Origin: Nemertoderma westbladi
Lineage: Eukaryota; Animalia; Xenacoelomorpha
DNA length: 64,000 nt
Reading direction: 5' to 3'
Assembly (NCBI GenBank): GCA_032718475.1
Contig: JAUCBJ010008853.1
Coordinates: forward strand, 1 to 64,000
The position numbers and the translations under genes were made by a program. The notes below the pieces were generated by a model, which worked only from the letters and a program-made list of their open reading frames with translations, was not told where the DNA came from and did no database searches. Positions 29,095 through 64,000 of the stretch are shown piece after piece; position 1 is the first letter of the stretch, and each line of letters starts with the position of its first letter.

Positions 29095-32000
29095 TTAAAA
29101 GGGTTTAGCATTGTCACCAATGTCCGCAGCAGGATCCGGAGTAGGGAACTTATCACCTCTCTTGGAGTCACCACTGTCATTGCCTTCAAGAAGGCAAAGC
29201 CTCTGGATAGGGCGTTGGTAGTGGCCTTTCGCCGTCCGTATCGTCACTGTCCTCGCAAGTCCGTCCTTGCTTGGGGTTATTTCCATGACTCGCGCCACAG
29301 GCCAGTGGACGCGGTCTTTAAGGTCTTCCTTAACAAGCACCATGTCGCCAACTGCGACGTTCCGGTAGGTGTTATTCCATTTCCTTCCTCCTGGTCCGGA
29401 GGGTTATGAGGTACTCTTGGGCCCAGATTCTCCACCAATGCGCTGCCAGCGCTTGGGCCTTTTTCCAGTTGGTGTGTCTCGCAATATCATTGGGATCTGG
29501 GAACATTGCCTCTGGAAGAATGTTGGTCTTGGGTCTTCCGAGTAGATGTTTGGGTGTAAGAGGCTCTAGGTCTGTAGGGTCATCGTGGATGGGTACGATT
29601 TGCCGGTTATTTAGGGTGGCCGTGATCTCGCAGAATTGTAGTGCGAAGGGTGTCATGGGTTACCCGGGTATCTCCTAATGCGACGCACATGGATCGTTTC
29701 ACCAAGTCGATGAGTTTCTCCCATACCCCGCTCGTATGGGGTGCCAAGGGCGTTTGGAAGTGCCATTGTATATGGTGTTCCTTCCAGACTTGGGATGCGG
29801 TTTCGTCGGTGAACCATCCTTCGATAGCCTCTCTGAGTTCCCTTTCTCCTCCCACGAAGTTTGTTCCATTATCGGAGTACATATGCCATTGTTCACCACG
29901 ATCCGACGCAGAGCGTTGATAAAGGCGTGCTGCGTGAGGTGTACTATGAGGTCTAGGTAAATCACCCTTGACCTAAGGCATGTGAAGGTGGCTCCCCAGC
30001 ATTTGATGTTGGATCGTCGCTCGATGACTGTAAATGGTCCGAAACAGTCTACTCCGGTTACATAGAACGGCGGTGAATCGGATTGCAGCCGTGTAGCCGG
30101 TAGGTCGGCCATTCTTTGGGTGAGCGGTGGCGCTAGGTATCGTCTGCAAGGGAAACATCGTTTTAAGACTTTCCAGATCAGTGGCTGGATGTAGGTGATC
30201 CAATATCTTTGCCGGATGTTGGCCATAATCCAGTTCTGGCCCGCGTGATGGTTTTCTTCGTGACACTGCTGGATTAATAGCTTAGCTAGTGTTGATGTAT
30301 TGAGGTGAGGCTAGTGTTGAGGTATTTGACTTCATATTCAACCGGGGCGTTCGCCATCCGGGTATTTAGTCGGATCAGTCCATCTTCCCCCATCATGGGT
30401 CTCAACCGGTAGACTGGGCTGTCAGGTTTCAAAGTCCTGCCCACGCTGAGCTGTTCCCATTCATCGGGGAATCTTTCTTTCTGTACGTATCTCACAATAC
30501 ATTTCTCCGCAATAATGAGTTCTTGTATACTTTGTCGAACTATCGGTTTATTATCCTTCCACCGCAAGAAGTTACAAAGAGTCACGACGTGGTGGATAAG
30601 ACGTCTCATCGAGGAGGTTCACTCTATCAATAGTTGTAAGGACGCGGCTGATTGCGCAGTGGTCGCAACATTATAATGCCTGCCCGAGTCCTTTGCAGGC
30701 TCGGTCAGACAACTATAGATTTCCACGGTGGCGCTTCCATGGACTTTGCGAATCTCCTTGTCGTCTTCCGAATATTTCCCGCTATCTAGCTCAGGATCGA
30801 ATCGGGTGCTCCAGGTTAGTTGTGGTTGCTTTAAGAACCCCGGGCCTGTGAGCCAAAGTTTACTCTTACCAAGCTGTCGTGGGGTGGCGCCTCTGGTCAA
30901 TAAGTCCGCTGGGTTTTCTTTTCCGTTCACGTGGTGCCATTGTTCTCGGTTGGTACATTGTTTTATTTCCGTGGCTCGGTTCGCTACGAACGTGGTGTGT
31001 CGCCATGATGGTGAGTGGAGGTAGTAAAGCACAATACTCGAATCAACCCAGAAATGCTGCGATTCAATGGGGATTCTTAGGTTCCCGCATGATCATGCGG
31101 TTCTGCCTCACTGCCCAGACTGCGGCCTGCAGCTCGTGTCTCGGGATTGTTGCCACAAATTCCCCAGATACCGTCTTGGCTTTGGAGAATAAGAAGCTCG
31201 TATCACCGTTTCCATCCTGACTTAATCTTCTTAGGAAGGTAACTACGCCGATTCCGGTATTTGATGCATCCGAGAAAGTATGGAGCTGGAATATATCGGT
31301 GGGTAGTTTGTCGAGGAAGAATGGTCGAGGGATCCGCATGAGGTGTAGCTGTTCGAGTTGTTCCGCCCACTTCTTCCATTTGGCACTGAGGTGTGGGGGG
31401 AGTTCTTCGTCCCATCCCAGTCCTTCTATCCACATTTCTTTGATCAAATTCATTCCGGCCAATGTTACTGGGGATATGAAGTTTAATGGATCAAATATGG
31501 CGCTCTTTACAGATAAACATCCCCTTTTTGTCATTGGTTTGGGCAGGGGGTTATGTTTGAAGATGAACTGATCCAGTTCTTTGTCCCATTCGATACCGAG
31601 TATGCGGTGATCTACACCCTCGGCATACATTTTGTTGTCGTCTAGCCTAATTTCTTCCGGGAACCTTTCCATAAGTTCCTTATCGTGGGATCTAATCTTC
31701 ACAAGAGGGAAACCTCCTCTCTTTAAACATTCCACCATTCCCATAGCCAGCTGATATGCCTCGTCGACGTTCTCAGCACCAGCGCATCCGTCATCTACGT
31801 AGAAACATCGTCGGATGGTCTCTATGACTGTCGGAGGGAACTCATTTTCACACATAGTCGCTGTTTTCTTCAACATGTCGCTACATGCAACCGCCGAGTC
31901 CTTAGCGCCGAAGATTCTGACAATCATGCGCATTACGTCCACATCCTTCAAGGTGAGTTGGTTTATCTCTTGTGGAGTCAATGTTTAATCTGTCCACAAT

Positions 32001-35000
32001 ATACGTAGGCAATCTGAGTCTCTTGGTAGCATTCGGACCTGGTGGAACATCGCTTTGATGCCGCATGTGAAGGCTATTTTGTTTTCTCGGAACCTGATCA
32101 ATACGCCGATCAGTGTACTGTAGATGTTGGGTCCGGTGTAAAGTTGGCTGTTTAAGGATTCGCCATGATACATAGCCACAGCGTCATTCACTACCCGGAT
32201 TTTACCGCCCTTCCGGGCTTCCATCACGTAGTGGGTCGGGAGATAATATGTCCGTCTAGTCCCCTGCAGTTCATTCAGGGGCACCATTTCCGCCAATCCA
32301 TCTTCTAAATAACCTTTAACCACATTATTATATTTCTCTTTTATCTCAGGTAGCTCGTTTAACCGGCGTAAGATACCTTTGAGCCTCCTTAGGGCCATGC
32401 TGGCGTTATTCGCCATCGGTCTATCTGGGTCTTTCCAAAGCATGGGCGAGCACCAATGTCCGTCTTTGAATGTTGCCTGGTCGAGAACATCCATACAATA
32501 TTGATCTTCTTCGGACGGATTCTCGTCCTTCTCAGCGAATTCTAGAGTCTCTAAGTTGAAATATTTTGTCATTTCCCGTTGGGTTTTTTCAGTTTCCAAG
32601 AATAAATCCTCGTCCAGGTCGGTTGCTGAACAGTAACCCACAGATATTGCGTTCTCTTTGATCTGGCATTTTGGAAGATATCTATATGTGTCGGTAGTCT
32701 CTTCTTTGATGCCACAGAGTGTCCATCCCATGATGGTGCGCTCCGCATAGAAACCATCATCCGGTTTTACAGATCGGGCTATGTCTCCGGTCGGTATATG
32801 TAATTCCGGTGTATCGAGCCCGATTAATAGCGTGATTCTGTTCAAGTCCAACGGTGGGCATCGTAGATCCACATCTTCCCGATCTAACTGTATGAGGGGT
32901 GCGTATTCGGATGATTGTCGGAATCGCACTCTGAGATCGGTATGCACCAGAGCATTTTTAATCGTTAGTTTGACCGCTTCGTAGCCTTTCATAACTCCTT
33001 CCATCCTGAGTTGTACCTCCCCGGACTCCACTTCTTTATGGTCGGTTATAGTCTGTATGGGCCGCCTGCAGGGTTCATAGTCTAGGCCTAGTTGTTCGAG
33101 AAAATCCCTGTCTGTGATCGTTCCGTCCGACCCATTGTCCTGTCCAGGAACGCGAGTGTTGTTAAGGATTTTCCGACCCCTTGGATTCTTACCAGGATCA
33201 CTTTGGTAAAGACCATATAACGGCGGTTTATTAAATTGACTGTAGCTGATATGCCGGTCACATGTGATACGTCAGCGGTGGTCTTGAACGGATTGGTTTC
33301 CCTCCGCTGAATCGTCCAGGTACCTTTGGAGACGTGATTCGTTTCTCCTCTCTGTTTGGATTCGATATGGAACGGTAGGGTGGTGAAATCGAAATTTGCG
33401 GGAATGTGGAGGAGTGTATGATGTCGTAGGTCGTTACAAACCGCACAGCATGACCTTTGGTCGCAATCCCGTACGTAGTGACCTGTTCCAAGACACCGGA
33501 AGCATCCTCGGTGTTTCATTATTGCCTCGAAGCGTGGAACGAGTTCGGCGAACTAGAATTTTCTGCAGAATTCCACCTTGAGTTTCTCCCCACAGAAGAG
33601 ACATAGAAGGGAGGTTGTTGTGCCTTCCCTCTCGGGTGCCCAATTTGCTAGATAGCATGCCCATTCCTCAGCCGATGTTGGTTCGTCATAGTCCTCATCG
33701 TCGGAATCCTCGGCCATGGTGATGGCCATCGTACTCCCCGGAGGGGGGCGGAATCTCGGTTTCGGAGTGGGTGCCCTGCTCCTAGAGTTGTTCTCTATTC
33801 CGTCTAACTTGGAGAGACTTTGCTTGGAGAACATCGAGTCGTTCATGGCTTCGGAGATATCATCTAGGAATGCCGACATTTCGAGGAAATTAGGATCCCA
33901 ATCCGGGTGTCTGCATCTGAGATCGACACATTTATACACCCATTTGCTTTGCAACCATCCGGGGAATTTCCGGGCAATCTGACGGAGGTTTAGGATGTTG
34001 TTTACTTGCTCCTCCTTGTTCAATGGGTTTAAAGTGTAGTAGGCGTCTTTCATTGAGTCCGAAAACTCTTGGATATTCGGTGGGTCCCCTAGAGATCCAG
34101 CGTCCTGTATCCGTTTTTCAAGCGTCTTATTGATTATAGTTCCGATGTTACCATATCTCTTATCTAGAGTTTTCCACGCATCATAGTACGCTTCGTGAGA
34201 TCCTCCTTCGAAACATTTTCTTTACTGGGTTTTCACATGGTATTTTCTGAACAAAATCGAGTATCGTTTCCGAAAGACAAATTGTCCAAGTCAAAATCCA
34301 GTATGTATATTGATAATGTCAGATTTACCACGACAAAACCCAGTAAACAGAGTTACTGGGTATACAGCAGTTTGAGATACTGGGTTTTGACGTGGGATTT
34401 CCCGAATGCAGATATTATGCCAAACCAAAACCCAGTAACTCCGGCAACGCAACAGACGTAGACAAATAATTAAATGTTCCAGAATATTATATTCTAGAAT
34501 GTTGCCTCTTTGTTTTCGCTAACCGTTGGCGAAGGAAAGAGTTTTAACTGGGTTTTTGGCGAAGGGAATTGTCAGTTACTTGGTTTTGGCATGGGAAAAG
34601 TAACTGATTGGAAAAGTTAAATGTTAGTTTACTGGGTTTTGGTGTGGGAAAATTAGTTACTGTGTTTTGAAATGGAAATCATGACGTTACTGGGTATTGA
34701 TTGTTCTCTTTTCTACCATACCAAATCCGTGTAAGTCGATTCATAAGAAAAGTAAGGAATAAATTTAAAAAAAGTTTTTGACTTTGCACTAATATATGTA
34801 CAATTTGTAAAGGTACACAAAATTATAACTCATCAAATTAAATTTCAACCAAGTGCCAGCTGTTTAAAGTCCAAAAATTTTAAACGCGATTATCTCGAAA
34901 AGTCAAAAAATGTACCGTACTTACTGGGTTTAGGTTTGGAGCTGCCGAGTATTAGGAGAGTAGCCCCCCCCCCCCCCCCCCCCCCGGACAGTAGCCCCCG

Positions 35001-42161: not shown

Positions 42162-43005
42162 AATGTACAGTAGACATAATGTACAGTAGATATAATGTAC
42201 AGTAGACATAATGTACAGTAGACATAATGTACAGTAGACATAATGTACGTACAGTAGAAATAATGTACAGTAGACATAATGTACAATAGACATAATGTAC
42301 AGTAGACATAATGTACAGTAGACATAATGTACAGTAGACATAATGTACATTAGACATAATGTACGTACAGTAGAGATAATGTACAGTAGACATTATGTAC
42401 AGTAGACATAATGTACAGTAGACATAATGTACAGTAGACATAATGTACAGTAGACATAATGTACAGTAGACATAATGTACAGTATAAATAATGTACAGTA
42501 TACATAATGTACAGTGAACATAATGCACAGTAGACATAATGTACAGTAGACATAATGTACAGTAGACATAATGTACAGTAGACATAATGTACAGTAGACA
42601 TAATGTACAGTAGACATAATGTACAGTAGAAATAATGTACAGTATACATAATGTACAGTAGACATAATGTACAGTAGACATAATGTACAGTATACATAAA
42701 GTACAGTATACATAATGTACAGTAGACATAATGTACAGTAGACATAATGTACAGTCGACATAATGTGCAGTAGACATAATGTACAGTAGACATAATGTAC
42801 AGTAGACATAATGTACAGTAGACATAATGTACAGTAGAAATAATGTACAGTAGACATAATGTACAGTAGACATAATGTACAGTATACATAATGTACATTA
42901 GACATAATGTACAGTATACATAATGTACAGTAGACATAATGTACAGTAGACATAATGTACAGTAGACATAATGTACAGTAGACATAATGTACAGTAGAAA
43001 TAATT
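42162..43005. repeat. 16-bp satellite (GACATAATGTACAGTA)n, left array
   Basis: About 50 tandem copies with point variants. Confidence 0.97.
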
Positions 43006-43047
43006 TACGATTTTGCGATTTGATAATAATTTGCGATCATCTACTGT

Positions 43048-45109
43048 ATCCGGGAGGATTTACAGGAGGTTGGGGGTGACGTGCAGCTCTGTCTTGGCCA
43101 GAAGGCCGGGATAGAGTTCGCCATCCACAGCCTCAACGACGCCTTCGACAGCGATGATTGCGACGCGGTGTTACAGATAGACGCCACCAATGCTTTCAAC
43201 GTTCTAAACCGCCAGGCAGCGATCCATAACATCCGGTCTGTCTGTCCCTCGCTGGCCACCGTCGTCACCAACTGCTACAGTCGCCCCTCACGGCTGTATG
43301 TGGATGGGGAGTTTATCCTCTCAGAGGAAGGCTCCACACAGGGTGACCCGGTGGCCATGCCGATGTTTGGCGGCTCGATGATGCCACTTATAATCAAGTT
43401 AAGGGAACTGTGCGACATCATCCAGCGTTGGTTCGCGGATGATGGGAACGCGGCAGGGAAACTTGCGGAGCTCCGCAAGTTTTGGGACATTGTATCGAAA
43501 GAAGGTCCGCTTTACGGCTATTTCCCTTCGAAATGCCATCTAACTGTCAAACCAGGGAAACTAGCCGAGGCGGAGGCGTTGTTTGCGGGGACAGGGGTGG
43601 TGATAAACACCGTGGGCCACGAACTCCTGGGCGGCGTTATAGGGAGTGAGGGATTCAGGGGTGAGTTCCTGGACCGGATGGTGGATGAGTTCGCTGCCCA
43701 GGTCGACCGTATCTCCGACATCGCGGCGGTCGACCCCCACTGCGCGTACGCGGGGCTGGTGTTCGGGTTGTCGTGTCGGTGGCGGTACGTCTCGAGGGTC
43801 GTCCCGGGCGCCACCGAACACTTCGCTAAGCTGGAGGAGGCGGTGACGCGGTTCCTCTGTCGCCTCACCAACCGCCCCGCTATCTCCCCGGAGGAACGCC
43901 AGCTCCTCTCCCTACCGGTTCGCCTGGGAGGTCTGGGAGTCCCGGTAACCAGGGATCTCGACTCCCAATATAGGAACTCCCGGGCGATATGTGAACCCTT
44001 CCGCCAGCCAACCTCCCCCATGATGTCCCAGGTCAGGGAGGACCAGAAGCGGGTGCTGTCGGCGCTAAAGGCCGATACCGCTCAGAGAATAAAATCGAGA
44101 ACGGAGGAGGTCAACAGCATTATATCCGTAGAACAACGGAAGTTATGCGAATTAACTTCGGAGAAGGGGGCGTCTACTTGGCTTAACACCAAGCCACTGA
44201 GTCATCTAGAAACTCACCTGGACAAGGAGGAGTTCAGAGACGCCCTCTGTCTGCGGTACGGGTGGTCGCCGAAGAACCTCCCATCTCGTTGTGCCTGTGG
44301 GGAGCGATTTTCCGCTTCTCATATCCTGTCGTGCCCCACTGGAGGGTTTCCCTCTATAAGGCACAACGAGATCCGAGACTTCGTCGCCGACTCCCTGACC
44401 GAGGTGGCTCACAATGTGGCTGTTGAGCCAATGCTCCTGCCACTGTCGGGTGAGCAGTTCACCCTCCGATCCACCTCGACCGACCAGCAAGCGAGACTGG
44501 ACGTTTCGGTGAGCGGATTCTGGGGCAACCGCTTCCAGAAGACGTTCATCGACGTCTCAGTCTTCAACCCGCTGGCCGCCACCAACGCCGCCATGACGTT
44601 GGACGCCGCCCATCGCCACCATGAAGACCGGAAGGCCAGGAAGTATGAGGAGCGAGTGAGGGAAGTTGAACACGGCAACTTCACTCCCCTCATCTTCACG
44701 GCCTTCGGTGGGATGGCTCCAACCGCCACCCAGTTCGTCTCCCGCCTCGCGCACAAGATCGCCGATAAGCGGGAGATCCGTTACTCAGATAGCGTGACCT
44801 GGGTGCGCCGGCATCTCAGTTTCGCCCTCCTCCGTTCCTCCCTCCTCTGTCTGCGGGGGTGTCGGTCGGCAGCGCGCCGCCCTGTGCGCTGCAATATCGC
44901 CGACACCTCCATCCGTCTGACCAACGCAGCAGTGGACACTACCGGTACTATTAACTAACTGCAAACTGAAAACTGCAGAAGACAGGCAAATAGGCCCTCA
45001 CTACCCTACTGTACATATTCAAATGTTGTCCAAGTATTGCCGTGTGTATATAGTTTCTTGAGTTATTTTTATAATATAATATACGTTACAAAAAAAAAAA
45101 AAAAAAAAA
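43048..45109 (+). mobile_element. 5'-truncated CRE-clade non-LTR retrotransposon with poly(A) tail
   Basis: GC-rich uninterrupted ORF, about 130-bp 3' UTR and A20 tail at 45090-45109. Confidence 0.88.
43081..44958 (+). CDS. RT, zinc knuckle and restriction-like endonuclease (N-terminally truncated)
   Basis: DATNAFN, GSTQGDP, WFADDG, LPVRLGGLG, EKGASTWL, CACG...HILSC, RHNEIRD, ARLDV...FIDVSV, K.RKY, FTPLIFTAFGGM. Confidence 0.9.
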   Translation: MQLCLGQKAGIEFAIHSLNDAFDSDDCDAVLQIDATNAFNVLNRQAAIHNIRSVCPSLATVVTNCYSRPSRLYVDGEFILSEEGSTQGDPVAMPMFGGSMMPLIIKLRELCDIIQRWFADDGNAAGKLAELRKFWDIVSKEGPLYGYFPSKCHLTVKPGKLAEAEALFAGTGVVINTVGHELLGGVIGSEGFRGEFLDRMVDEFAAQVDRISDIAAVDPHCAYAGLVFGLSCRWRYVSRVVPGATEHFAKLEEAVTRFLCRLTNRPAISPEERQLLSLPVRLGGLGVPVTRDLDSQYRNSRAICEPFRQPTSPMMSQVREDQKRVLSALKADTAQRIKSRTEEVNSIISVEQRKLCELTSEKGASTWLNTKPLSHLETHLDKEEFRDALCLRYGWSPKNLPSRCACGERFSASHILSCPTGGFPSIRHNEIRDFVADSLTEVAHNVAVEPMLLPLSGEQFTLRSTSTDQQARLDVSVSGFWGNRFQKTFIDVSVFNPLAATNAAMTLDAAHRHHEDRKARKYEERVREVEHGNFTPLIFTAFGGMAPTATQFVSRLAHKIADKREIRYSDSVTWVRRHLSFALLRSSLLCLRGCRSAARRPVRCNIADTSIRLTNAAVDTTGTIN

Positions 45110-46728
45110 GACATAATGTACAGTAGACATAATGTACAGTAGACATAATGTACAGTAGACATAATGTACAGTATACATAATGTACAGTAGACATAATGTA
45201 CAGTAGACATAATGTACAGTATACATAATGTACAGTAGACATAATGTACAGGAGACATAATGTACAGTAGACATAATGTACAGTAGACATAATGTACAGT
45301 AGACATAATGTACAGTAGACATAATGTACAGTATACATAATGTACAGTAGAAATAATGTACAGTAGACATAATGTACAGTAGACATAATGTACAGTAGAA
45401 ATAATGTACAGTAGAAATAATGTACAGTAGACATAATGTACAGTAGACATAATGTACAGTAGACATAATGTACAGTAGACATAATGTACAGTAGACATAA
45501 TGTACAGTATACATAATGTACAGTAGACATAATGTACAGTATACATAATGTACAGTAGACATAATGTACAGTATACATAATGTACAGTAGACATAATATA
45601 CAGTAGACATAATGTACAGTAGACATAATGTACAGTAGACATAATGTACAGTAGAAATAATGTACAGTAGAGATAATGTACAGTAGACATAATGTACAGT
45701 AGACATAATGTACAGTAGACATAATGTACAGTCGACATAATGTACATTATACATAATGTACAGTAGAAGTAATGTACAGTAGACATAATGTACAGTAGAC
45801 ATAATGTACAGTATACATAATGTACAGTATACATAATGTACAGTATACATAATGTACAGTATACATAATGTACAGTAGACATAATGTACAGTAGACATAA
45901 TGTACAGTAGACATAATGTACAGTAGAAATAATGTACAGTAGAGATAATGTACAGTAGACATAATGTACAGTAGACATAATGTACAGTAGACATAATGTA
46001 CAGTAGACATAATGTACAGTATACATAATGTACAGTAGACATAATGTACAGTATACATAATGTACAGTAGAAATAATGTACAGTAGACATAATGTACAGT
46101 AGACATAATGTACAGTAGACATAATGTACAGTAGACATAATGTACAGTAGACATAATGTACAGTATACATAATGTACAGTAGACATAATGTACAGTATAC
46201 ATAATGTACAGTAGACATAATGTACAGTAGACATAATGTACAGTAGACATAATGTACAGTAGACATAATGTACAGTAGAAATAATGTACAGTAGAGATAA
46301 TGTACAGTAGACATAATGTACAGTAGACATAATGTACAGTAGACATAATGTACAGTAGACATAATGTACAGTATACATAATGTACAGTAGACATAATGTA
46401 CAGTATACATAATGTACAGTAGACATAATGTACAGTAGACATAATGTACAGTAGACATAATGTACAGTAGACATAATGTACAGTAGACATAATGTACAGA
46501 AGACATAATATACAGTAGACATAATGTACAGTAGACATAATGTACAGTAGACATAATGTACAGTAGACATAATGTACCGTAGACATAATGTACAGTAGAA
46601 ATAATGTACAGTAGACATAATGTACAGTAGACATAATGTACAGTAGACATAATGTACAGTAGAAATAATGTACAGTAGAAATAATGTACAGTAGATATAA
46701 TGTACAGTAGAGATAATGTACAGTAGAA
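45110..46728. repeat. 16-bp satellite (GACATAATGTACAGTA)n, right array
   Basis: About 100 tandem copies starting immediately after the poly(A) tail. Confidence 0.97.
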
Positions 46729-51250: not shown

Positions 51251-51379
51251 AATAATAACCCCTGTCTTTGATTCCTTTTGTTTTACGCGATCATTTCGTT
51301 CTAAAACAATAAATATATTATAAGCCTGATAACAATGCGGTCTTCTTTATTAGATTCCTATTAGATTACTAGATGATAG

Positions 51380-51958
51380 TGGCAATGGTGGTATTGTTCT
51401 ATTGATGAATCCCACTGCACATGCAGCATTGGACAAATTAGACCAAATCTCCAACCGCATCATCCGTTGCCACTTCTCATGTTCTGGAAGACTGGCTAAG
51501 AAGTTTCCTAAGGTGGTTCTGATTGTGTGCTACTCTCCAACTAGTGTTGCCCCTGTAGAGGAGGTGGAAAAGTTCTACCACAATCTACAAGCAGCTACTG
51601 ATGGAGTGGATCAGCATGCATTCTTAACATTCCTTGGAGACTTTAATGCAAGTCTGCATCAATCACCTACATCGCCCTGGGTCTATAGCAATAGTGCTAA
51701 CCGAAATTCCGTCCATCTTCAGGATTTTATCTCTGGAAATGGATTGTTTTCGGCTGGAACCCAGTTCAAGAAGCGAACTGGAAAGCTATGGACTCATAGT
51801 GGACCCAGTGGTCACAAGTCCCAGATAGACCATATTCTGTTTCGTAGGAAATACAGGAGCTCTATGCAAGACTGTAGTGCATTTACACTTCGACCCTTCT
51901 CCAGTGATCACCGCCTTATTGTGGCCAAGGTAAGACTTAGTCTGCGTGTTAGCAGAAC
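51380..51958 (+). mobile_element. RTE-like LINE endonuclease fragment, cut by the BEL 4 LTR
   Basis: VCYSPTS, KFYHNL, LGDFNA, WTH...SQIDHIL, SDHRLIVAKVRL. Confidence 0.8.
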
Positions 51959-52539
51959 TGTGACGGGATCCGAGAATCCCGATTTATCCGGTGGTTATCT
52001 TATCTACGCGTCCCCGCCGTGTGTGTGTGAAAAAGAGTTCTTGAGTTGTTGACTGATCGGTATGTATAAATATAGGGTATAATACAATCGAATAAAGTGT
52101 AACACAGTTGATTGATGATAACTAAAGTGTACCGATAAAATAGCTGAAAGATGGTGGTGGCAGTAGACGGTGATAAGAGTTCCCGTTCTGCCCTAACTAA
52201 CTGACTAACTAAAGTGAATGAAATGACACAGCAACTGGTAATATATTGCACTGGTTGGCCGTATTACATTACTCAGTGGATGCCTGCCCCCCATTGGCTA
52301 ATAACCCAATTCTCGCCCTCCCATCTCTCTGGGAGTGTTTCCCCCTGCTGCTATCACTATCTCCCTCCCGGAGGTGTAACCTCTGACCCCCGCTGTGTGT
52401 GTTCCCTTGGGGTTTGTCGCCCCGTTTATTGGGGTGATACGAGGTTGATTGGCAATCAACCTCGTACTCCCAATATTGCTTAAAGCTCCTGTTTGGCCAA
52501 CTCTGTGTGGGGTGGTTAGCGGAATTGAATACGCTAACA
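51959..52539 (-). repeat. Terminal 3' LTR (LTR-a, about 581 bp)
   Basis: Sense strand reads TGTTAGCG...CCCGTCACA directly after the PPT and abuts the interrupted LINE. Confidence 0.75.
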
Positions 52540-52869
52540 CTCCCCCCATGCTATCTTCCCGGTGAGAAGATAGCATCCACCTCTAGTGCGCTACAATTCC
52601 GCTGGATCCTGATCTACTATCGGGTGTGGGGTGGAATTATTTTTTCCGGAGCCGGCTTTCCAGGCCGCTCCCTATGGGTATGATATCGCTACCCTGTTTT
52701 CCTGGCGTCCCGTGTCGGGCCGATCGTGCGCTTCTCTCACACGATTTTTGTTTCCCCAAAACCTTCGCCACTCTAGCTCCACTCTACTCTCACCCTGACT
52801 CTCCTCTACTTCTCTTCACTCCCTCTCTTCACTCTTCACTCTTTATTTTATCACGACTTTTAATTCTTT

Positions 52870-53365
52870 CTTCGTGATCATTGTGGAATGCTGTAAAGAG
52901 TTCTGGTGTTATTGATTCTCCGATATGTATAATGTGAGATATATATAAGGGTATAAGGATATAGTATAAAATGGATACGGTATAAGTAATATCTAATAAT
53001 AATGGTGGTAGGCGAGGATGGTCTTAGAAGTCTCCGCTCTACCCTAGCTAACCGACTAACACAATGAGATAACTGAAATAACTGATTACTGTCAACTGGT
53101 TATATTGCACGGGTTGGCCTTGTTACTGTACCTAGCCGGTGCCTCCCTCCCATTGGCTAATATCCCTGTTGGCGCCCTTTGGAGTGTTTCCCCTCACTCC
53201 TGCTATTCTCCCTCGGTCAGGGGTTTGGCCCCTGACCCTTATTGTGTGTTCCTCCTTCCCATTTTATTGGGGTGGCACGAGATTGGGTATCCAACCTCGT
53301 GGCCCCCAATATTGCTTAACGGCTTACTTTATGGGTTCGTGTTAGCGGAATTGGATAAGCTAACA
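52870..53365 (-). repeat. Second, diverged LTR copy (LTR-b)
   Basis: Starts TGTTAGC after an identical PPT; colinear with LTR-a but clearly diverged; the U5 end is uncertain. Confidence 0.7.
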
Positions 53366-54565
53366 CTCCCCCCCATGCTATCTTCCCGGTGAGATGATAG
53401 CATCCTCCTAAAGTGCGCTACAATTCCGCTGGATCCCGATCTAGCATCGGGTGTGGGGTGGAACTATTTTCTCTCGGAGCCGGCTTTCCAGGCCGCTCCC
53501 TATGGGTATGATATCACTACCCTGTTTTCCTGGCGTCCCGTGTCGGGCCGATCGTGCGCTTCTCTCACACGATTTTTGTTTCCCCAAAACCTTCGCCACT
53601 CTAGCTCCACTCTACTCTCACCCTGACTCTCCTCTACTTCTCTTCACTCCTGCTCTAACCCTCGGACCTCCTTGTCCCTCACTCTGCCTCTTACTCCTCC
53701 CCCCCCACACTTGAATTGCACCCGCACTCTCTTCGTGCTATCACTCGACCCCTATCTCAACCACTCACTCCTGGCGAGCCTCACCCCCCTCCTGTGCCGT
53801 CGCACTCAAGAAGTGTGAAGTTGTCCAGCATCTCGTTTGTCATAGTCAATTGTTCCCCAGTCCCAGTAGCTAATTGGAAAAAGGTTGTATGACTATAGTA
53901 CTTACTTTGATTGTATTTTCTTGCTAAACTAATGATTGTTTCGAACGTACATACTAATTGCACTTTTCAATTATTTAAATTATTTGAATTTGTACTTAGG
54001 AGTTCGCACGTCTCACGTGGTGCCTTCCAGGCATACCACATCGAAGTCTTAGTTCGTTCCACCTGTCTTTGGGAACCACCTCAACTCTTTCCCTCTGTCG
54101 TCCTCCTCCCTTGGTCGTTTCCTGGCCGCTGCCGCTCCTTTGGTCTTATCTCCCTTCAGGCTCCTGACCCTCGCCGTCACCTCTCTACTAATCCCGGTCG
54201 TTGACTCCTTGGGCGCTGGTGTTATTAGCTCCCGGTATCGCTTCGCGGGTGGCCCCTCCGAGTGGCCCTGTTGTTTCCCCCTGGTGGCGTCCCATGGGAT
54301 CACTTTCATCGCCCGCGGCACATGCTCCGCCAAGAAATCTCTGAACTCCTGTCCACCTGTCCAAATACCTCTGCGTATTTATCACCACGGCATACGACGC
54401 CGCCGTCGCTACCTCCTGGTAGGTAAACGGAAGTCTCCGTTTGATAATCTCCAAGTGGGCCTCCTGGTTGATATTGAAGAAGCCCCACCGGAACTCCTGG
54501 GCCTTCATACGTTGCCGAGTCATGGCCCCGAAGTTGGCCCACTCCTCAAAGATCCTAAACTTATC

Positions 54566-56596
54566 TTAGTCATCCATCCAGTCGCACTGGCGTCCGTAGT
54601 GCCCCCAGAAGCTGCACTTCGAACACCGGTTGTGCAACCGTGGACATGCCCCCATCCTGTGGCACGACTCGCGGCAGTAGAGACAACTAGTCCCTTTCTG
54701 GAACCGGTACAAACAGCTCCTTTCCTGGTGGGTTTGCCTCCCACAGTAATCACAGCCGAGCACCAATGTCTCCCGCCCCTCGTCGTCTTTCGTCCCAAGC
54801 GATCTCCGCGGTCTGTGGAGTCGCTGGTAAGCGAACTTCTGGACGTTAGTGTCCCTGTCCACGTCGATCTCCTCGCCCCTCCCGGGCATCGTCTCACCGA
54901 ATACTACCCGTGGTGCCGTTCCCGGTTGCTCGCCCAACCTGATGGTGCTCCCCGCGAAATCCATCGCCGGCTCCTCATGCACCCAGGCCCGCTTGCTGGG
55001 TCTATCCCAGAAGGCCCTCGCCCCACTAGCCGTCACCACCCTCCTGCTAACCCAGTCCGTGTCCGAGTGGCCGATTCTCCCGATGGGCGGCATCTCTCCA
55101 AACTCGTCATCATCCTCGTCCTCCTCTGGGAGTGGCTCCAACCCCGGTATCCCGGTGGACCCACTGTGTCCCTTCCCGCCTTGGCTCTCGCTCGTGACTT
55201 TCCATCCTTCCAACTCCCCTAGCCTCTTTAGCGGGTGATCGCCCTCGGCGCCCGCTGGTATGGGCATCATCTCCAATCCCGATGTCGCCTGTTTCGGTGA
55301 TCCCACCATCCACCCTAATTCTCGCCCTAGAGACTCCCCCGAACTCCCTGATGACGTCCATCGAAGTTCGTCTAAGGCCGCCTGTTCCTCGAAGCCGTAG
55401 CTCTGCGCTCTAGCTTCTTCCTCCCTTTCCTCTGCCTCTCTCCTTTCATGTCTAGCGATTTCTTCCAATCGCTTCGCTTCTCGTCTATCCGCCTCTAGCT
55501 GCTCCCATCTCTGATATGGCGTATCTACCTCCCCGTCTACCAGATGTCGGCAGTTATAGTACACCGACTCGCCCTTCAGCCCTGGGAGGTCTACTAGACC
55601 CTCGAAAGCCGTCTTGAAGGCTCTTCTGTAGCTTCGGGGTGATCCCGATAGCAGGAATGCTGTTGGTTCCCTCTCGATAACCACGGTCATGAATAGGTTA
55701 AGCGAACCCATCATTATCCAGTCCTCCTGTAGGATATATCGCTTCTGATATACCTTTATCGCTCCTCTCTGGAATTGATACACCTCTTGTTTCCCTGGCC
55801 TTTTCCCTGGCGAGTTCGCCAACTCCACTCCGTACTCCTCTCTGAACTTACTCCAGTCCATAGGTTTGTGACACACGAGCCCCATTAGCTGGCCCATCGC
55901 CACCGCTCCACAATGGCGTGAGTTCTCCACTAGTCCCAACCCGTCTGGTGTTGTCATAGCCACGTAGACCGTCTGCATGTCCAGAAGGTTGGGGGTGTCC
56001 GGACTGATGATTCTCTCCGCATCGTCGCAAATCGCCGATCCCACTTTCGTCCTCGACTTCTCTCTCACTAGGGTTTGCACTGCCTTCGGCAACCGGTTCA
56101 ACTTCGGCCCGTCCTTCTTCCCATACGTCCCTAGATCGAATAGGAATATATCTCCATTTGGCGCGCCCAAATTTAGGAGTATGGTTCTGGCCGACCCCGC
56201 CGATCCTCTCCTCGAACCCTCCTCGTCTTCCACGGTCCCCTCATCGTCTAGGATCATGTATCCTCCTCTGCTGACGGACTCTACGAACCTCTTCCAATCC
56301 TTTCTCGGTAGCTCTCTTGCGTACTTCGGAATCCCGAACTTCGCTTCGTCTCCTTTCACCACATAGTGGAAATGCTCAAAGATCACGTTGTGCAGCGACG
56401 GCGTCCCATAGGTCCCGACCAGCCGCTGTTCATGCACCTCCCTGAAATGGTCCTGTAGCGCTCGCGCCTTGTGACCTCTCTCTAACCGCTCGTAGTATCC
56501 CCTCGTCTTCTCTTCCGGATGCCTCTCGGTGAAATCCACCAGTATCTCCTTTCCTCCTAACTCCACCTTTCTCTTTCGGACAAGCTTCCCTGCCAT
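54566..56596 (-). CDS. Accessory ORF: DEDDy 3'-5' exonuclease-like domain plus three CCHC zinc knuckles; the same frame continues to 54188 after one TAA
   Basis: YMILDDEG (ExoI), LLNLGAPNGDIFLFDL, LPKAVQTLVREKSRTKVGSAICDDAERI (ExoII), LLDMQ, YQKRYILQED (ExoIII-like); CDYCGRQTHQERSC, CLYCRESCHRMGAC, CSKCSFWGHYGRQC. Confidence 0.7.
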   Translation of the reverse strand: MAGKLVRKRKVELGGKEILVDFTERHPEEKTRGYYERLERGHKARALQDHFREVHEQRLVGTYGTPSLHNVIFEHFHYVVKGDEAKFGIPKYARELPRKDWKRFVESVSRGGYMILDDEGTVEDEEGSRRGSAGSARTILLNLGAPNGDIFLFDLGTYGKKDGPKLNRLPKAVQTLVREKSRTKVGSAICDDAERIISPDTPNLLDMQTVYVAMTTPDGLGLVENSRHCGAVAMGQLMGLVCHKPMDWSKFREEYGVELANSPGKRPGKQEVYQFQRGAIKVYQKRYILQEDWIMMGSLNLFMTVVIEREPTAFLLSGSPRSYRRAFKTAFEGLVDLPGLKGESVYYNCRHLVDGEVDTPYQRWEQLEADRREAKRLEEIARHERREAEEREEEARAQSYGFEEQAALDELRWTSSGSSGESLGRELGWMVGSPKQATSGLEMMPIPAGAEGDHPLKRLGELEGWKVTSESQGGKGHSGSTGIPGLEPLPEEDEDDDEFGEMPPIGRIGHSDTDWVSRRVVTASGARAFWDRPSKRAWVHEEPAMDFAGSTIRLGEQPGTAPRVVFGETMPGRGEEIDVDRDTNVQKFAYQRLHRPRRSLGTKDDEGRETLVLGCDYCGRQTHQERSCLYRFQKGTSCLYCRESCHRMGACPRLHNRCSKCSFWGHYGRQCDWMDD

Positions 56597-57069
56597 CTCT
56601 AACTCTCCTCAATCGCTCACCTGTAAGGTGGTGCCTTGCCAAGGCGCAGTACAGATGAGTGATAAAGTTAGGATGGTCTGTACAGTTCGACAATGGCCTA
56701 TCTCTTACTTAACTTGAGTTTTCGCCTAATTTTCCCTACTTAATTTCTAAAACTGCTAAATTGTACCCTAAATTGTAATTTTGTCCGCTACTTTAATTAT
56801 GTTCCAGAATATTTTTCCCTACTGTTACCATAATTTGTTTAATTTCTACCTTTTATTTTTATTTTTAATCTAATTCAATCCTACTACTGTGTTACTACTT
56901 CTGCCAATGGATTATTTTACTTTATAATCCACACTCTGGCCTATTTTGTGGGCTTGTGCAGTACAACAGTATGCGTCGTGTGGCCTACACGATTTATCCA
57001 GCTGTACTCACGTGCCCCCCTCTCGCTACTCACTACTAACTAATATCTATATTATATATATACCCTTCT

Positions 57070-57780
57070 ACCACTAACTTCTAACTAACTTCTACTAACC
57101 GGTACTACGTACCCTCTTACTAACTTCTGACTGACTTCTACTAACCAGTACTACGTACCCTCTTACTAACCTCTAACTAACTCCTACTAACCGGTACTAT
57201 GTACCCTCTTACTAACCTCTAACTAACTCCTACTAACCGGTACTACATACCCTCTTACTAACCTCTAACTAACTCCTACTAACCGGTACTACGTACCCTC
57301 TTACTAACCTCTAACTAACTCCTACTAACCGGTACTACGTACCCTCTTACTAACCTCTAACTAACTCCTACTAACCGGTACTATGTACCCTCTTACTAAC
57401 CTCTAACTAACTCCTACTAACCGGTACTACATACCCTCTTACTAACCTCTAACTAACTCCTACTAACCGGTACTACGTACCCTCTTACTAACCTCTAACT
57501 CTCTCTCAACTAACGGTACTACGTACCCTCTTACTAACCTCTATCTCTCTCTCAACTAACGGTACTACGTACCCTCTTACTACTAACTCTTACTAACTAA
57601 CGGTACTACGTACCCTCTTACTACTAACTCTTACTAACTAACTAACGGTACTACGTACCCTCTTACTACTAACTCTTACTAACTAACTAATGGTACTACG
57701 TACCCTCTTACTACTAACTCTTACTAACTAACTAATGGTACTACGTACCCTCTTACTATTAACTAATTATCTAACTATCT
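57070..57780. repeat. About 40-46-bp tandem repeat (GGTACTACGTACCCTCTTACTAAC...) between pol and the accessory ORF
   Basis: About 15 copies with a gradually changing unit. Confidence 0.92.
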
Positions 57781-57909
57781 GCCTACTTACTCTTTCTTTT
57801 CTTTTCTTTTCATTTCTTTATTTATTTTTATTTTTAAGTGTGGGAAGGGCGTCTTGCCCTCAATCCCACCCCCCTCAGTCCAAAACTTGGACGATTAAAC
57901 TCTACTCGT

Positions 57910-60900
57910 CTAAGGTGCTCCCTCTAGTAGGCAGCACTTCCCTACAGCCCTCCTGTAGGTCTTCCTATCTTTCGCTCCTATCTTACCACCTATCCGCACT
58001 TCTACCGATCGGACTCTTCCGTCCTCGCCGGAGTAAGTGCCCACAACTCTCGCCAACCGCCATTGGTTGTTGATGATGGTATCGTCCGTGACGATCACCA
58101 GATCACCCTCCTTTAGCTCTCTATTCGTATCCCTCCACTTGCTTCTCCTATGGAGCGTGGGTAGATATTCCTCGACCCACCTCCTCCAGTACTCTGCGCT
58201 TATTGCCTTAGCGACTTTCCAACTCTGTCGGGAGTGTATATCGTCTGGGTCTACACCCCACATGTCGATGGTCGCCGGCCTCTCCATTAGAAAGTGACTG
58301 GGCGTCAGCACATCTAATGACTCTGGGTCATCATTTTCTGGATATAGCGGTCTGCTATTAATGATACCCTCACATTTTGCTAGTACCGTCCTTAGTACGT
58401 CCTCGGTAACCATGTGGGTGTTCATCAACTTCGTCATCAGATGCTTGGAACTACCCACGAGTCTCTCGACGCATCCTAGAGTATGCGGAGCATACGGCGT
58501 CCTCCTCTCCCACTTCACCTGTTGTCTTCTCATGGCTGCCCTGACTTCCTCCCCTTCCAGGATATCCAAGGCCGCTGCCATCCCATTCTCTGCCCCCACA
58601 AAGTTGGTTCCGTTATCGGAGTATATTACTGCGATCGTCCCACCTTTGCGGTCTCTGAACCTTTCTAGGGCATTAATGAATGCCGATGCGGTTGCATCTT
58701 GGGTGAGTTCTATCCCTACCGCTCGCGTGTTGTTACATACGAAGATAATACCGTAGCGTTTCTCCGTGTGTCGCATCACCTTAATCTTTATCGGCCCGAA
58801 CATATCCACACCGCAGTGCGTGAATGGCGGGTCATGTTGTCTCACTCTGCTGGCCGGTAGTGGCACCATCTCCTGTATGGCCCGCTCCTTCTTCGTTCGT
58901 CGGCAGGTCTGGCACTGCCCCACTACTGCCTCTACCTTCTTCCTTAACTGTTTGACCCAAAAGGTCCTTCGTATCTCCGTGAGGGTTCGGTTGGTGCCCC
59001 CATGCAATATCGACTTATGGGAGTCCCAGATGATCTGGTGGACTATCGGCGATCCATTAGGGATGATGATGGGCTTTGGCGGAATGATAATACTGTTGTT
59101 ACTCAACACCCTAGAGTTCATTACTAAGATCCTGTCATCATTGAGTTGTGGCGACAGCGCGATCAGCTCACTGTCCCGTCGGAGATGCTGTTGTCTACCG
59201 ACGCATTCCACCTTGTCGCTGTAATTCTTTCTCTGTTCATAGCGGATAACGGCTTTGGCCGCTCCCTCCAGATCGATGGTTGTTCTAATTTTTACGTCTT
59301 TGCCGACTCCCTTGAGGAAATCCCCGAAGGCTCTGCAGTACGCCACTAACTTCTTGGTCTTGTACCAACTAGAGCTGTAGCTAAGGAGTTTGTCCGTCGG
59401 GTTATCGCACAGTTCTTCCGATTTTAGTTGCACGTCCCTTATCTCCCTCACCATCTGGCTATATATTTCCTCACCTTCTGAATCTCCTCCCTCTTCCTCT
59501 AACGCTACTTGCTCTGCGCCCGGGTCCACCTTTCTCATCGGCGGCCAGGCTGTCTTATCATTTAGTAATTGCGGCCCATGCTGCCACAATACTTCCTTCT
59601 TAAAGAAAGTGTGGCATGCCACGCCCCTCGATAACAAGTCTGCTGGGTTCTCGTCCATTGGGCAGTAGTGCCACCTTTCTAACTCTGTGGTCGCCCTTAT
59701 TTCGTCCACCCTGTTTGCGACGAATATAGGGTATCTCGTCCTTTCGTTATGTAGCCAACCAAGCACTACCATGGAATCCGTCCAGTAGTGTGTTTCCACT
59801 ATGTTGGGAATAGCGCCCATCAAGTAGGCTGTGGCCCTAACTCCTAACCTCGCAGCTGTCAACTCGAGTTTCGGAACTGATGCTGAATCTGGTGGCGTCG
59901 ACTTCGCTTTGCTGAATGCGAGTCTGGGCTTGTGAGCCCCCTCTCATTGTACTAAGTAGAGTGCCGCTCCGTATGCCTCTAATGATGCATCGGAAAACAT
60001 GTGTAGATCCAGATTCATCATGTCCCCATCCGGGAAATACACGCGTGGCATGCTGTATGTTCCCATCTGCTCTAAACTCTCTGTCCACTTACACCACTGC
60101 TTGCTGATCTCTTCCGGTACCTCTGTGTCCCACTCGTCCTTTAGTTTGTATACTCTCTTGAGTATCTGTTTCCCCGTGACTAATAATGGGGATGCTAGGC
60201 CTAGGGGATCGTATATCCTTGCTATGTACGAAACATAGCCCCTCTTTGTGTGGATGTCTGCGCCCTCCTGATTCAACTGGTATTTCAACTTGTCTGTCTC
60301 TCGGTTCCACACGATCCCTAGTGCCTTCTGTTGGGACTCTACTCTCTTGTTCGCCATGTCCTGTCCCTTGGCTGTCGTGGGATTATCCATGGTCGACTCT
60401 GGCCTCCTGTCCTCTATGGCTTTCATGAACTCTTGCGAGCTGGATTGGAACTTGGTTAGGTTGAACCCGGATCCTTTTAGGATGTCGCGAACCTCGCACC
60501 CCGTATCCAGTAGTTCCTTAACCGTATTTCCAGACTCCATCCCGTCGTCTACATAGAAGCCGCGTCGAATCATATCAACGGCTTTGTCGCTGAATTTATC
60601 TTCCTTCCCTTCTACTGTGTCTCTTACGGCCACAGTCGTCGTAAATGAAGACGACTTGGCTCCCATATTCTGTACTACCATCTTATACATCGGTATGGTC
60701 GACGGTTCCTCGTCGCCGTGTACCATAGAACGTCGCTGTCGCTATCCTCTTCCGTTACACGGACTTGGTTGAACATGCCTTCGATGTCGCAGGTGAAGGC
60801 GTGTTTCCCGTTCCTGAATCTAAGTAAGACCTCTATCCCTGAGTTGTAGATATTGGGACCCTCCAGCAGATAATCGTTTAGGCATTTGCCGTTGGTCTTA

Positions 60901-63141
60901 GCTGATGCGTCAACTACCATCCGCAGTTTACCTTTCTTCGGGTCTAGAGCCACGTGGAGTGGCAGGTAATAGGTCCTGTCCGTGTTTGGTTCGTCGACCG
61001 GTAGCTCTACGGCCCATCCTTTCTCGACATACTTCCTAATCGTCTTATGAATGTACTCATTCTTTTCGGGGCTCCGTTTTAGCGTCTGCTTCAACTTACG
61101 AAGCCTCGTGAGTACCATTCCTCTGTTGTCGGGTAGCGGTAGCTTCGGTAGCTTCCATACCATTCCTATGGTATACCGCCCCTCGTCGCACCTCATCGAC
61201 TCCTTTACGCTCTGTAGAGCCTGTTTATCTTCTACCGAGGTTCCGACCCCGGTCTCTTTTAATCCCTCAAAATCCTGCCTGAGCAGTCTCCTGAGCTGCT
61301 CCTCCGCTCCCTCATCTCCCATCTCTCGCATAGTTCCCGCGAACATGCAGCCTGATGTCTCCGACATCCTAAATGGTATCTTGCTCTTAATTGGGCCGCT
61401 CAGCGTCCACCCGAATGGTGTTAAAATCGCCACCGGGTCACACTGCCTGTCTTCGCCGAAGACCGTTTGCATTCTCTCGTGGGCCGTCGGGCAGTCCATT
61501 CCTACTATAATGGATACCTTCCTAACGTCCACCTCTGGGATTGAGAAGTCGATACTGTCCAGGAATTTATATTGTTCGACCTCGATGTTGGTTGGCCGCC
61601 TGGCGTTGATATTTATCGACTCTATCACCTGGATGGGGTCGATGGTCGCCCCATAGTCGCATCCTGGTGCTATCGCTGCTATCGCGCACCGTCCGGTCCT
61701 CATCTCCAGGACCTCATCTTTGCTGGAGATGGTTGTTACCGCCATTCTACTTGGCCTCGTTCTCAATCCTATCTCTTCGGCCACCCAGTTCTCGACTAAT
61801 GTGAAGGCTGCTCCACTGTCGACCAGCATCAGTGTGGTCACTGATCGATTGCCTTCCCCGATCACTCGCACTGGTACTACCCCAAGTAGTACCGTTCCTC
61901 TCTTCTTTGCCCCTACGGTGCTCGTTGCCATCGTCTGACCTTTACTTTGACCGAACTTAATTGGCGTTTCCTTGCATTGGTTGGCTCTATGTCCACTCAT
62001 CACACATCGTGAGCAGATTTCATTTCTTCTCGCGTATTCTACCTGATCTTCCCTGGGTAGCGCTTGCCAGTACCTGCAGTTCATGGTCTGATGAAGTGCA
62101 TTTGTGATGTAATTGGCATTTGCTCTTTGGGTTGTAGCCGTCCTTATAAAGTGCGTTGCATATCGCACTTATGTTTGTACCAAAGTCCCTACTATTCTTA
62201 TTGTTTGGGTTCGGCCTACTGGGCGTGCTGGGGTTATGTTTATTTGTGTTGTTATTTTTCCCCTGTCCGCTCCATGATGTGGTCTTACCCCCGGCTACTT
62301 GTGGACTAGCAGTCCCCTGCGTTGCTGCGTACGGCAGTGACTGTCTGAGCTTTGGCAATGCGTTCGACGCGTTGTGTTCTGGTTTCGGTCTGTGGTAATC
62401 GGTCTTTGGTCCCTTTCCCAGGCTATCCTCGCTATAGACTGGGTCTGTTATTAATTCGGCTTCATAGTTCAAGAAGCTCGACATTTCTTCTAAACCCGGT
62501 TCCGCACCCTTCTTATCTCGAGTGGTGAAAGCGATTTTCCTCCACTTATTACGCATCCAGATCGGCAGTGCCTGTGCTATCGTGGTGATGTTGTTAGACG
62601 CGTTGAGTTCGTATGGTGCGTCTAGCGTCTTTAGTACGATTAGCGCCTTCTCAACCTTGTTCGCAAACGTCTTTATGCTAACGGGATTATCCTGTAGGCC
62701 ACCCGATGTTATACCTCTCAGGGTCTGCCGGATGATCTTGGCCGGGTGCCCGTACTCCCTGTCTAATGCCCGCCATGCTGTCGTGAAGCCGCCCTCGATA
62801 CCCTGGTATTGCCTCACGATATCGTATGCTGGGCATCCTGTATATACTTGTAGATATTTTAGGCACTCCGCCTGCGTCAAGTTCTTTGTTAGTATTTCGT
62901 TACTATACATGCGCCGAAACTGTAGGTATTCTTCCGGCCTACTTCCATCGAATTTGAATGGTTCCACGGGTGGTAACTCGATCCTAGTTTTTAATGCATC
63001 GATTAATGTAGCCATTCCCATCGCTTGCGCTTCCAATGGGTTCGATGGATGCCATATAGGTTCTCCCATTGGGTGCGGTCCGTTCGTCCTGTCTGACGCT
63101 TTTCTTTGACTTATATCATTGGGGGTAGCGGCCCCCTGCAT
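57910..63141 (-). pseudogene. gag-pol: BEL/Pao gag-pol of element 4, broken by a few frameshifts
   Basis: Gag KFDGS..EYLQF, protease LVDSGA, YYLPLHV, DIEGMFNQV, RT FYVDDG, RNase H FSDAS/WTDSM/NPADLLSRG, integrase HGG..CQTC/GVDMFGP/SDNGTNF/ERLV. Confidence 0.93.
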
Positions 63142-63447
63142 ATTTTAGTGTCGCACGATCTATTCTTATCCCTATTGGGGTATATTGTTGATATTGTGAT
63201 GGGGGAATGTCACCCTGCCCCCCCCCCCCCCCCCACCGGTATGTTTGATACTGGGGTTGATGTTAATATATTGGGGCCCATACACCTATCCACAATAATT
63301 CTCCCCTCCCCTGGGTATATGTTATGTCCTTGCATGCTGTAGTCATACTGCTGTGCTGGTACCGGTATAGGCCTATCCACTTCTGGCCTACCTGCCGGTA
63401 TATACTCCGCGACTTCCGGGTTTAGTCCCGTCGTCCGCGCTATCCTA

Positions 63448-63850
63448 TTGCTTACATTATCTCTCCCAGCATGGCCTATGGTATGTGGGGCGAGACACGC
63501 AGTCGGCGAGCCTTGGCATACGGTTCATATAGGGCAAATGGGGCATGTCCATCTGTCTGTCTGTCTGGCTGTCTGTCTGTCTGGTAAATGTTTGAACGCG
63601 AATTTCTCTGCATCGCTGGTTCGGAATTGAACCAAACTTAGTAGGTAAGTAGTATAGAAAAAGTTTAGAAAGTTTGTAAAGTTTGGTGAAAAATCATGCA
63701 GTCTGACGTCAGCTACGACAGATTATGTGGTTTTTAGAAAATGTTAAATTTCTCGGGAAGGCCTCATTTTCCTGAGCTTAAATTTTGGTGGCCTGTAGAG
63801 AATCATGAAGTCTATCTTTTACGAAATTGAAAAGTTAAGACATTTAATTG
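63448..63850 (+). mobile_element. Possible DINE/Helentron-like non-autonomous element truncating BEL 4
   Basis: (GTCT)n microsatellite followed by CGCGAATTTCTC...ACCAAACTT, a layout typical of such elements. Termini not defined. Confidence 0.35.
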
Positions 63851-64000
63851 GGGATCCGCTAGAGACTCAGAAGTAATGACATAGGCCTACCGGTACGGTA
63901 CTGCTGTACAGTGCTGCACTGGTAAGTACGAAATTGCAGAATAACAATTTGACACCACCTAGCGGATTAACATATGATTGTATATCGAATGAATACATTT

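Follow-up and report, generated by a model that had tools for sequence, protein, structure and literature searches.

A candidate third gene with a DEDDy-like exonuclease domain and CCHC zinc knuckles in a BEL/Pao retrotransposon of Nemertoderma westbladi

In this work we analysed a stretch of 64,000 nucleotides from Nemertoderma westbladi (assembly GCA_032718475.1, contig JAUCBJ010008853.1, positions 1 to 64,000), called the window below, and focused on a BEL/Pao retrotransposon lying on its minus strand. In addition to gag and pol, a third open reading frame (ORF), here named ORF3, is found between pol and the 3' long terminal repeat (LTR). Its N-terminal part resembles the DEDDy 3'-5' exonucleases, and its C-terminal part carries three zinc knuckles of the CCHC type. 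ORF3 is a real, conserved and multi-copy accessory gene that most likely belongs to this BEL/Pao family. The coordinates of all features of the element are given in Table 1.

Structure of the element and of ORF3

The Pfam families DUF1759, Asp_protease_2, Peptidase_A17, Integrase_H2C2, rve and DUF5641 follow each other in this order on the minus strand, a Pao-type set that fits BEL/Pao (Belpaoviridae). The pol gene ends with a stop at 57910. Downstream of ORF3 lie two LTR copies in tandem, A and B. The match between them breaks off at one homologous point, beyond which the flanks are unrelated, a behaviour typical of LTR termini. The window holds no 5' LTR of the ORF3-bearing element; near 63540 its gag is interrupted by a different repeat. 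Belpaoviridae have paired LTRs of 0.2-1.2 kb and a primer-binding site for tRNA-Arg or tRNA-Gly; of these parts the window holds the 3' LTR, approximately 900 bp long, the 5' end of the element lying outside it. An arrangement of tandem elements with ORF3 ahead of gag was ranked low, because copies A and B have a common 3' terminus.

Two further observations concern the tandem LTR copies (52027-53783). Within the match their identity declines from approximately 100% on the 5' side to approximately 70% on the 3' side, and in both the hairpin before AATAAA is kept, with stems that have changed yet still pair.

An earlier reading of the sequence alone (the sequence-only reading) had reported an ORF of 676 residues on the same strand as pol, between the pol stop and the polypurine tract (PPT) and LTR, and this was borne out. 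The range that it gave, 54188 to 56596, was right only in part: the ORF occupies 54566-56596, but 54188-54565 is an in-frame continuation beyond its stop. This stop is peculiar to the window copy. When the window was compared with contigs from four runs, which come from three samples and three studies, 99-100% of the summed contig depth differed from it at the stop codon (36, 38, 27 and 3 contigs), so that the family gene has approximately 802 codons. Read through the stop, which is then written X, ORF3 has 802 residues, and its BLASTP alignments with the homologues P0002 and P0004 (described below) cross the break into the FE..A..G..T...GFF module. Scored alone, the continuation reaches 22.3 bits versus 21.6 for the best of 100 shuffles, which is marginal; the case for a longer gene is thus carried by the contigs and by the alignment in context.

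The motifs listed in the sequence-only reading were all found in the order in which it gave them, ILDDEG at residue 115, GSAICDDAERI at 186, LLDMQ at 204 and YILQED at 287, as were its three CX2CX4HX4C knuckles. It had also seen no transmembrane segment, in agreement with a best 19-residue hydropathy window of only 1.08. A role as env was therefore rejected; no homology to fusogens was found either, ORF3 having no Pfam match.

Table 1. Features of the ORF3-bearing BEL/Pao element in the window
Feature	Position	Strand	Details
BEL gag, broken	62020..63540	minus	DUF1759 within 62023-63144; cut ~63540 by other high-copy repeat
BEL pol, protease and reverse transcriptase (RT), split into frames	59944..62168	minus	RT recognised by its YVDD motif alone
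BEL pol, RNase H end and integrase	57910..59943	minus	Peptidase_A17, Integrase_H2C2, rve, DUF5641
Spacer between pol and ORF3	56597..57909	minus	PPT-like GAGGGGGGTG 57876-57867, array, TATA 57062, GTGAGT 57033 and 57011, AATAAA 56863/56857
Tandem array	57085..57764	minus	15 units, each 41-46 nt long, sharing a common core; homologous series end to end
ORF3 in the window copy	54566..56596	minus	ATG 56596, stop 54566-54568, 676 residues
DEDDy-like 3'-5' exonuclease domain, putative	55661..56329	minus	residues ~90-312; D117, E123 (or E119), D192, Y287, E291
Charged segment	55367..55519	minus	residues 360-410; 33% D/E, 20% K/R
Three CX2CX4HX4C zinc knuckles	54584..54754	minus	residues 615-671; exact pattern, starts 615, 638, 658
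In-frame ORF3 continuation past copy-specific stop	54188..54565	minus	125 codons; first ~65 residues are the conserved C-terminal module (FE-x-A-x-x-G-x-x-T ... GFF)
Polypurine tract, then TG	53784..53793	minus	PPT of ~10 nt before 3' LTR, as in Belpaoviridae
3' LTR (copy A), 3' end approximate	52882..53783	minus	~900 bp; CCAAT 53156, initiator-like TCAGTT 53085, hairpin and AATAAA 53268
Diverged second LTR (copy B), ends approximate	52027..52881	minus	78% to copy A over 696 columns, same 3' terminus

The N-terminal domain and the zinc knuckles

As judged from profile and motif comparisons, the N-terminal domain is likely a divergent DEDDy exonuclease domain of the WRN/EXD2 kind. A profile built on a three-row alignment gave six matches among solved structures at E-values up to 10, namely EXD2 (6K17, 0.031), WRN (2E6L, 0.27) and a single WD40 protein with four entries. 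The same profile matched four ORFs in 301 bacterial genomes. Three of these are PF01612 exonucleases, and the fourth (L090) is without a Pfam family. Alignment by hhalign with a profile of 30 independently chosen PF01612 sequences gave a probability of 71%, an E-value of 3.7e-5 and a score of 38.7, versus 22.1 for the best of 30 column shuffles; the probability against a bacterial RNase D profile was 1.4%. A value of 93% against the three bacterial PF01612 matches is circular and was not used. In a comparison of ESM Atlas features, a cluster in which 50% of the members carry PF01612 scored 0.92, preceded by three unnamed clusters.

The catalytic positions were followed in a seven-row alignment with the bacterial enzymes, in which D117, E123, D192 and Y287 are invariant. 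The Asp and Glu of ExoI are present as D117 with either E123, after a four-residue insertion, or E119, and the Asp of ExoII is present as D192, which aligns with EXD2, WRN and the bacterial enzymes. I280 and Q284 stand in the L-x-x-Q-x-x-Y register of ExoIII, and E291 occupies the column of the ExoIII Asp. This Glu is found in all three full domains, those of the window protein and of the homologues P0002 and P0006. The sequence-only reading had doubted catalysis on account of ExoIII, correctly in so far as Asp is replaced by Glu; since the Glu is conserved in P0002 and P0006, it is a trait of the family and does not reflect decay. Its assignment of the domain to the WRN/EXD2 side of the DEDDy nucleases agrees with the profile evidence and the motif register, but obtained neither a direct Pfam match nor a confident fold.

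The charged segment is followed by a linker rich in Gly, Pro and Ser, which reaches residue 612. The best solved match of the knuckle region is the trypanosome RNase D TbRND (7C42, E 3.3e-5), and retroviral nucleocapsids match the knuckles weakly. For the nuclease domain EXD2 and WRN rank first, TbRND not being among the matches of the exonuclease profile. ORF3 gave neither an HRDC nor an Rrp6 signal.

Homologues of the ORF3 protein

A search of 1.84 billion representative proteins with ORF3 resulted in three matches (P0002, P0003 and P0004), and a profile search added P0006. P0003, a plant protein matching by its knuckles only, was dropped from later alignments. The remaining three are distant homologues, singletons without a name, two of which keep the full architecture. 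P0002 (715 residues) has the same architecture as ORF3 and is approximately 26% identical to the window protein, and the four carboxylates and the Tyr are kept in both. In P0004 the nuclease part is degenerate, and the knuckle and C-terminal module is present as two full copies. In P0006, Asn stands at ExoI and the Tyr of ExoIII is missing. No match was found in a single-sequence search of a set of 5.8 billion proteins (lengths of approximately 350 residues and more), and L001, a metagenome locus considered for the family, was a false match.

These sequences bear on an alternative function, in which a catalytically dead or weak nuclease fold would act as an RNA-binding adaptor of the EXD1, Egalitarian or Maelstrom kind, for example by localising or shielding the RNA of the element. 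Such an adaptor could dispense with the ExoIII Asp, with the residues changed in P0006 and with the nuclease part of P0004, which keeps and doubles its knuckle module, and the possibility is named in the accessible part of PMC5408684. However, the window protein and P0002 both retain the four carboxylates and the Tyr at approximately 26% identity, and we regard the adaptor as unlikely, although it deserves to be kept in view.

Copy number and ownership by the BEL element

The contig comparison covered 52835-56970 and 57770-64000. The first region, with ORF3, is multi-copy, with 8901, 5270, 5752 and 103 contigs in the four runs, most of them 90-99% alike. For the second, which comprises gag and pol and includes an unrelated repeat, there were 30716, 11047, 15483 and 317 contigs with a similar spread of identity. 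The LTR core reached several times the summed depth of ORF3. Among the 12 indels listed out of 36, none lies within ORF3, and 17 of the 21 listed contig pieces wholly inside ORF3 are free of gaps, two more having 3 and 6 gap letters.

Several lines of evidence connect ORF3 with its surroundings. Diverged contigs link the leader to ORF3, and ORF3 to the 3' untranslated region and the LTR; they also join the 3' part of the spacer to the ORF3 leader, and the end of pol to the 5' part of the spacer. The purine share is 0.58-0.68 in every part of 52027-63540, versus 0.51 and 0.46 outside. The codon usage of ORF3 correlates with that of the adjacent integrase frame at r = 0.73, versus 0.41 and 0.00 with the two other BEL elements of the window.

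The spacer opens with the same 10-mer, GAGGGGGGTG, that marks the PPT/LTR junction. Its 3' part contains a CA end and a motif resembling a primer-binding site (PBS), TGGTAACAG, at 56830, and its best acceptor-like CAG is at 56621, 25 nt before the ORF3 ATG. Taken by itself, the segment 56830-57876 (minus strand) has an LTR-like anatomy inside the element, with the PPT-like 10-mer and TG, the array, TATA, AATAAA and the PBS-like motif. BLAST found no similarity between the spacer and LTR A. Because of the 10-mer at its start and of AATAAA, CA and the PBS-like motif at its end, the spacer may be a relic of an older LTR, possibly retained as an internal promoter.

If the BEL element ended at the PPT-like motif after pol, ORF3 and LTR A would come from a different or non-autonomous element, joined to it fortuitously or through recombination within the array. 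The 10-mer after the pol stop would be expected in this case, together with a following 1 kb that looks like an LTR but not like LTR A; no copy other than that of the window was seen to span the array from pol to ORF3 in the two regions compared, and the window holds no 5' LTR or target duplication for comparison. This origin is at odds with the diverged contigs that reach into the spacer from both sides, with an array that forms one homologous series from end to end, and with a codon usage and strand bias that match those of pol, and we consider it improbable. ORF3 is quite likely owned by the BEL element; we put this no higher because no other copy bridges the array and because the spacer has the look of a former LTR.

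Relation to known systems

The sequence-only reading had implied a greater surprise than is warranted, as LTR retrotransposons with a DEDDy ORF3 have been known since 2017. According to the accessible part of that paper, Rodriguez et al. described them, with the motif DEED, in the bdelloid rotifer elements Juno and Vesta and also in Athena/Terminon elements (PMC5408684), and the accessible parts of PMC6431247 and PMC6338049 repeat this. As described there, the ORF3 of Juno and Vesta likewise forms an ORF of its own behind pol, where env would lie; it is of DEDDy type with an altered catalytic motif, has no transmembrane segment and is of unknown function. In a comparison by description only, the window gene differs from it in its BEL/Pao carrier, in a D-E-D-E instead of a DEED motif, and in the addition of three CCHC knuckles and a C-terminal module. 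Juno and Vesta are gypsy-like.

In TbRND, a DEDD nuclease, CCHC knuckles raise RNA binding and cleavage, as stated in the accessible part of PMC7797062. ORF3 resembles it in the order of a DEDD exonuclease and tandem CCHC knuckles. Unlike ORF3, TbRND is a cellular enzyme with four knuckles behind a 28-residue linker, whereas ORF3 has three knuckles approximately 300 residues away and a nuclease domain nearer to EXD2/WRN than to RNase D. Since the match involves the knuckles only, the likeness is probably convergent. With EXD2 and WRN (PF01612; 6K17, 2E6L) the window domain shares the strand-helix motif order, the KVG..I..D of ExoII and the L-x-x-Q-x-x-Y register of ExoIII; it differs in its ExoIII Glu and its insertions, lies below Pfam detection and is borne by a transposon.

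Third genes of BEL/Pao elements are described as env-like, in roo, Tas and the mosquito elements with chuvirus glycoproteins (accessible parts of PMC8742986 and PMC13524379). They also lie between the integrase and the PPT, but ORF3 encodes a soluble nuclease-like protein and not a fusogen. The Belpaoviridae profile of the International Committee on Taxonomy of Viruses gives only gag, pol and env, and a length of 4.2-10 kb versus more than 10.6 kb without the 5' LTR for the window element (PMC8742986). The term 'exonuclease' was not found by look-up in the accessible parts of PMC3118150 or PMC13524379. No BEL element with such a gene was found in the literature, of which subscription journals, Repbase and supplements were outside the scope and could hold one. 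What is new is the BEL carrier, the WRN/EXD2 affinity and the layout of exonuclease and CCHC knuckles like that of the trypanosome RNase D.

The range of nuclease cargo thereby grows from the rotifer elements to BEL/Pao, and LTR elements seem to have captured different DEDDy nucleases more than once. Since the window family is abundant, unlike the low-copy rotifer cases, selection, expression and effects on small RNAs are open to measurement. In the window copy nothing interrupts the nuclease domain, which could be assayed alone, so that the role of such ORFs is directly testable.

Proposed function

On balance we hold it to be probable that ORF3 is the BEL element's own third gene, and that its WRN/EXD2-like DEDDy domain and its three CCHC knuckles act jointly as an RNA 3'-end trimming nuclease. 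By analogy with TbRND, and because two proteins that are 26% identical have the four carboxylates and the Tyr in common, a metal-dependent 3'-5' ribonuclease steered by the knuckles to RNA ends seems likely and is favoured here. Transcription of ORF3 would start from a promoter within the spacer (TATA at 57062), and a short 5' intron would be spliced from one of two GTGAGT donors to an acceptor lying 25 nt upstream of the start codon. Single-stranded RNA would be bound by the knuckles together with the C-terminal module and its 3' ends passed on to the exonuclease, in the manner of the knuckles in trypanosome RNase D. The substrates may be the element's own RNA ends or host small-RNA guides, so that ORF3 would weaken the tailing or the silencing directed at the element. 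Among host factors, tailing enzymes restrict retroelements, and small RNAs undergo trimming by Nibbler and Mut-7. Granted the trimming nuclease, an RNA substrate combined with counter-surveillance has a chance that we put slightly below even, and the other uses rank below it.

A broader proposal, which we advance tentatively and consider doubtful, is that a very successful BEL/Pao family is equipped with an RNase against host defence. This would be a nuclease of the WRN/EXD2 type, captured independently, in which a D-E-D-E active site is combined with a three-knuckle RNA-binding module, and it would trim small-RNA guides of the host or the tails of element RNA. The family, with P0002, P0004 and P0006, would then be an unrecognised and widespread accessory gene of animal LTR retrotransposons.

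Alternatively, the knuckles could be nucleocapsid-like and recruit the protein to the inside of the particle. There it would edit cDNA 3' ends by removing mismatches or untemplated bases, or trim the tRNA primer. DNA exonucleases are found among the nearest solved relatives, WRN and EXD2, and nucleocapsids do match the knuckles, if weakly; but the best knuckle match is an RNA-trimming enzyme, the gene is absent from most BEL elements, including the two others in the window, and the element copies are not unusually homogeneous. We regard particle editing as quite unlikely.

A number of results count against the trimming nuclease encoded by the BEL element. ORF3 has no match in Pfam or NCBIfam, nor in the PDB as a single sequence. 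The E-values of the N-terminal profile against the PDB are weak, with the WD40 protein ranking between EXD2 and WRN, and the hhalign alignment with PF01612 spans the ExoI-ExoII half only. ExoIII departs from YxxxD, Y287 being kept with Glu (E291) in the place of Asp. AlphaFold gave low-confidence models of ORF3 from the single sequence and from the three-row alignment, with predicted local distance difference test (pLDDT) values of 34 and 33, and Foldseek found no match for the low-confidence model (pLDDT 33-34), a result made uninformative by the poor model. The changes in P0006 and P0004 indicate that catalysis is often lost. No loci of the ORF3 family were found among viral contigs, prokaryote genomes, phages, plasmids or the metagenome, and hence the homologues have no genomic context. 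On the side of ownership, besides the array that no other copy bridges, the summed depth of ORF3 relative to pol is 0.54, 0.73, 0.63 and 1.14, a ratio that is not a copy number, and copies with internal deletions exist. Among the differences listed (40 of approximately 650), the 25 in ORF3, excluding the stop codon, fall on codon positions 1, 2 and 3 as 13/7/5, with no third-position excess, versus 9/6/18 for 33 listed in pol; the two lists have different thresholds, and the ORF3 differences are mostly peculiar to the window copy.

Taken to the extreme, the N-terminal domain would not be a DEDD nuclease at all and its motifs would be alike by chance, which would account for the missing Pfam match, the low-confidence fold models and the PDB E-values of 0.03-0.27. 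Four partly independent comparisons give the same family with the catalytic columns in register, which makes such a coincidence very improbable.

Other features of the window

Two other BEL elements lie on the minus strand of the window. One is represented by a gag-protease ORF of 1370 codons (11018-15127), with approximately 500 residues of unknown sequence before DUF1759; the other (29098-34221) is broken, and has neither LTRs nor a homologue of the nuclease ORF. Next to LTR copy B, which cuts it off, is a frame for an endonuclease of the long interspersed nuclear element type (51354-52052, plus). A 16-bp satellite (42162-46727) is split by a GC-rich insert of 2 kb, in which a 642-codon frame (43030-44955, plus) appears by eye to be like a non-LTR reverse transcriptase, with no Pfam match at 0.01. 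An ORF of 513 codons at 23880-25418 (plus) encodes a C2H2 zinc-finger array. Finally, a repeat of approximately 800 bp is present in three near-identical copies, one of them inverted, at 962-1744, 6764-7587 and 17303-18121.

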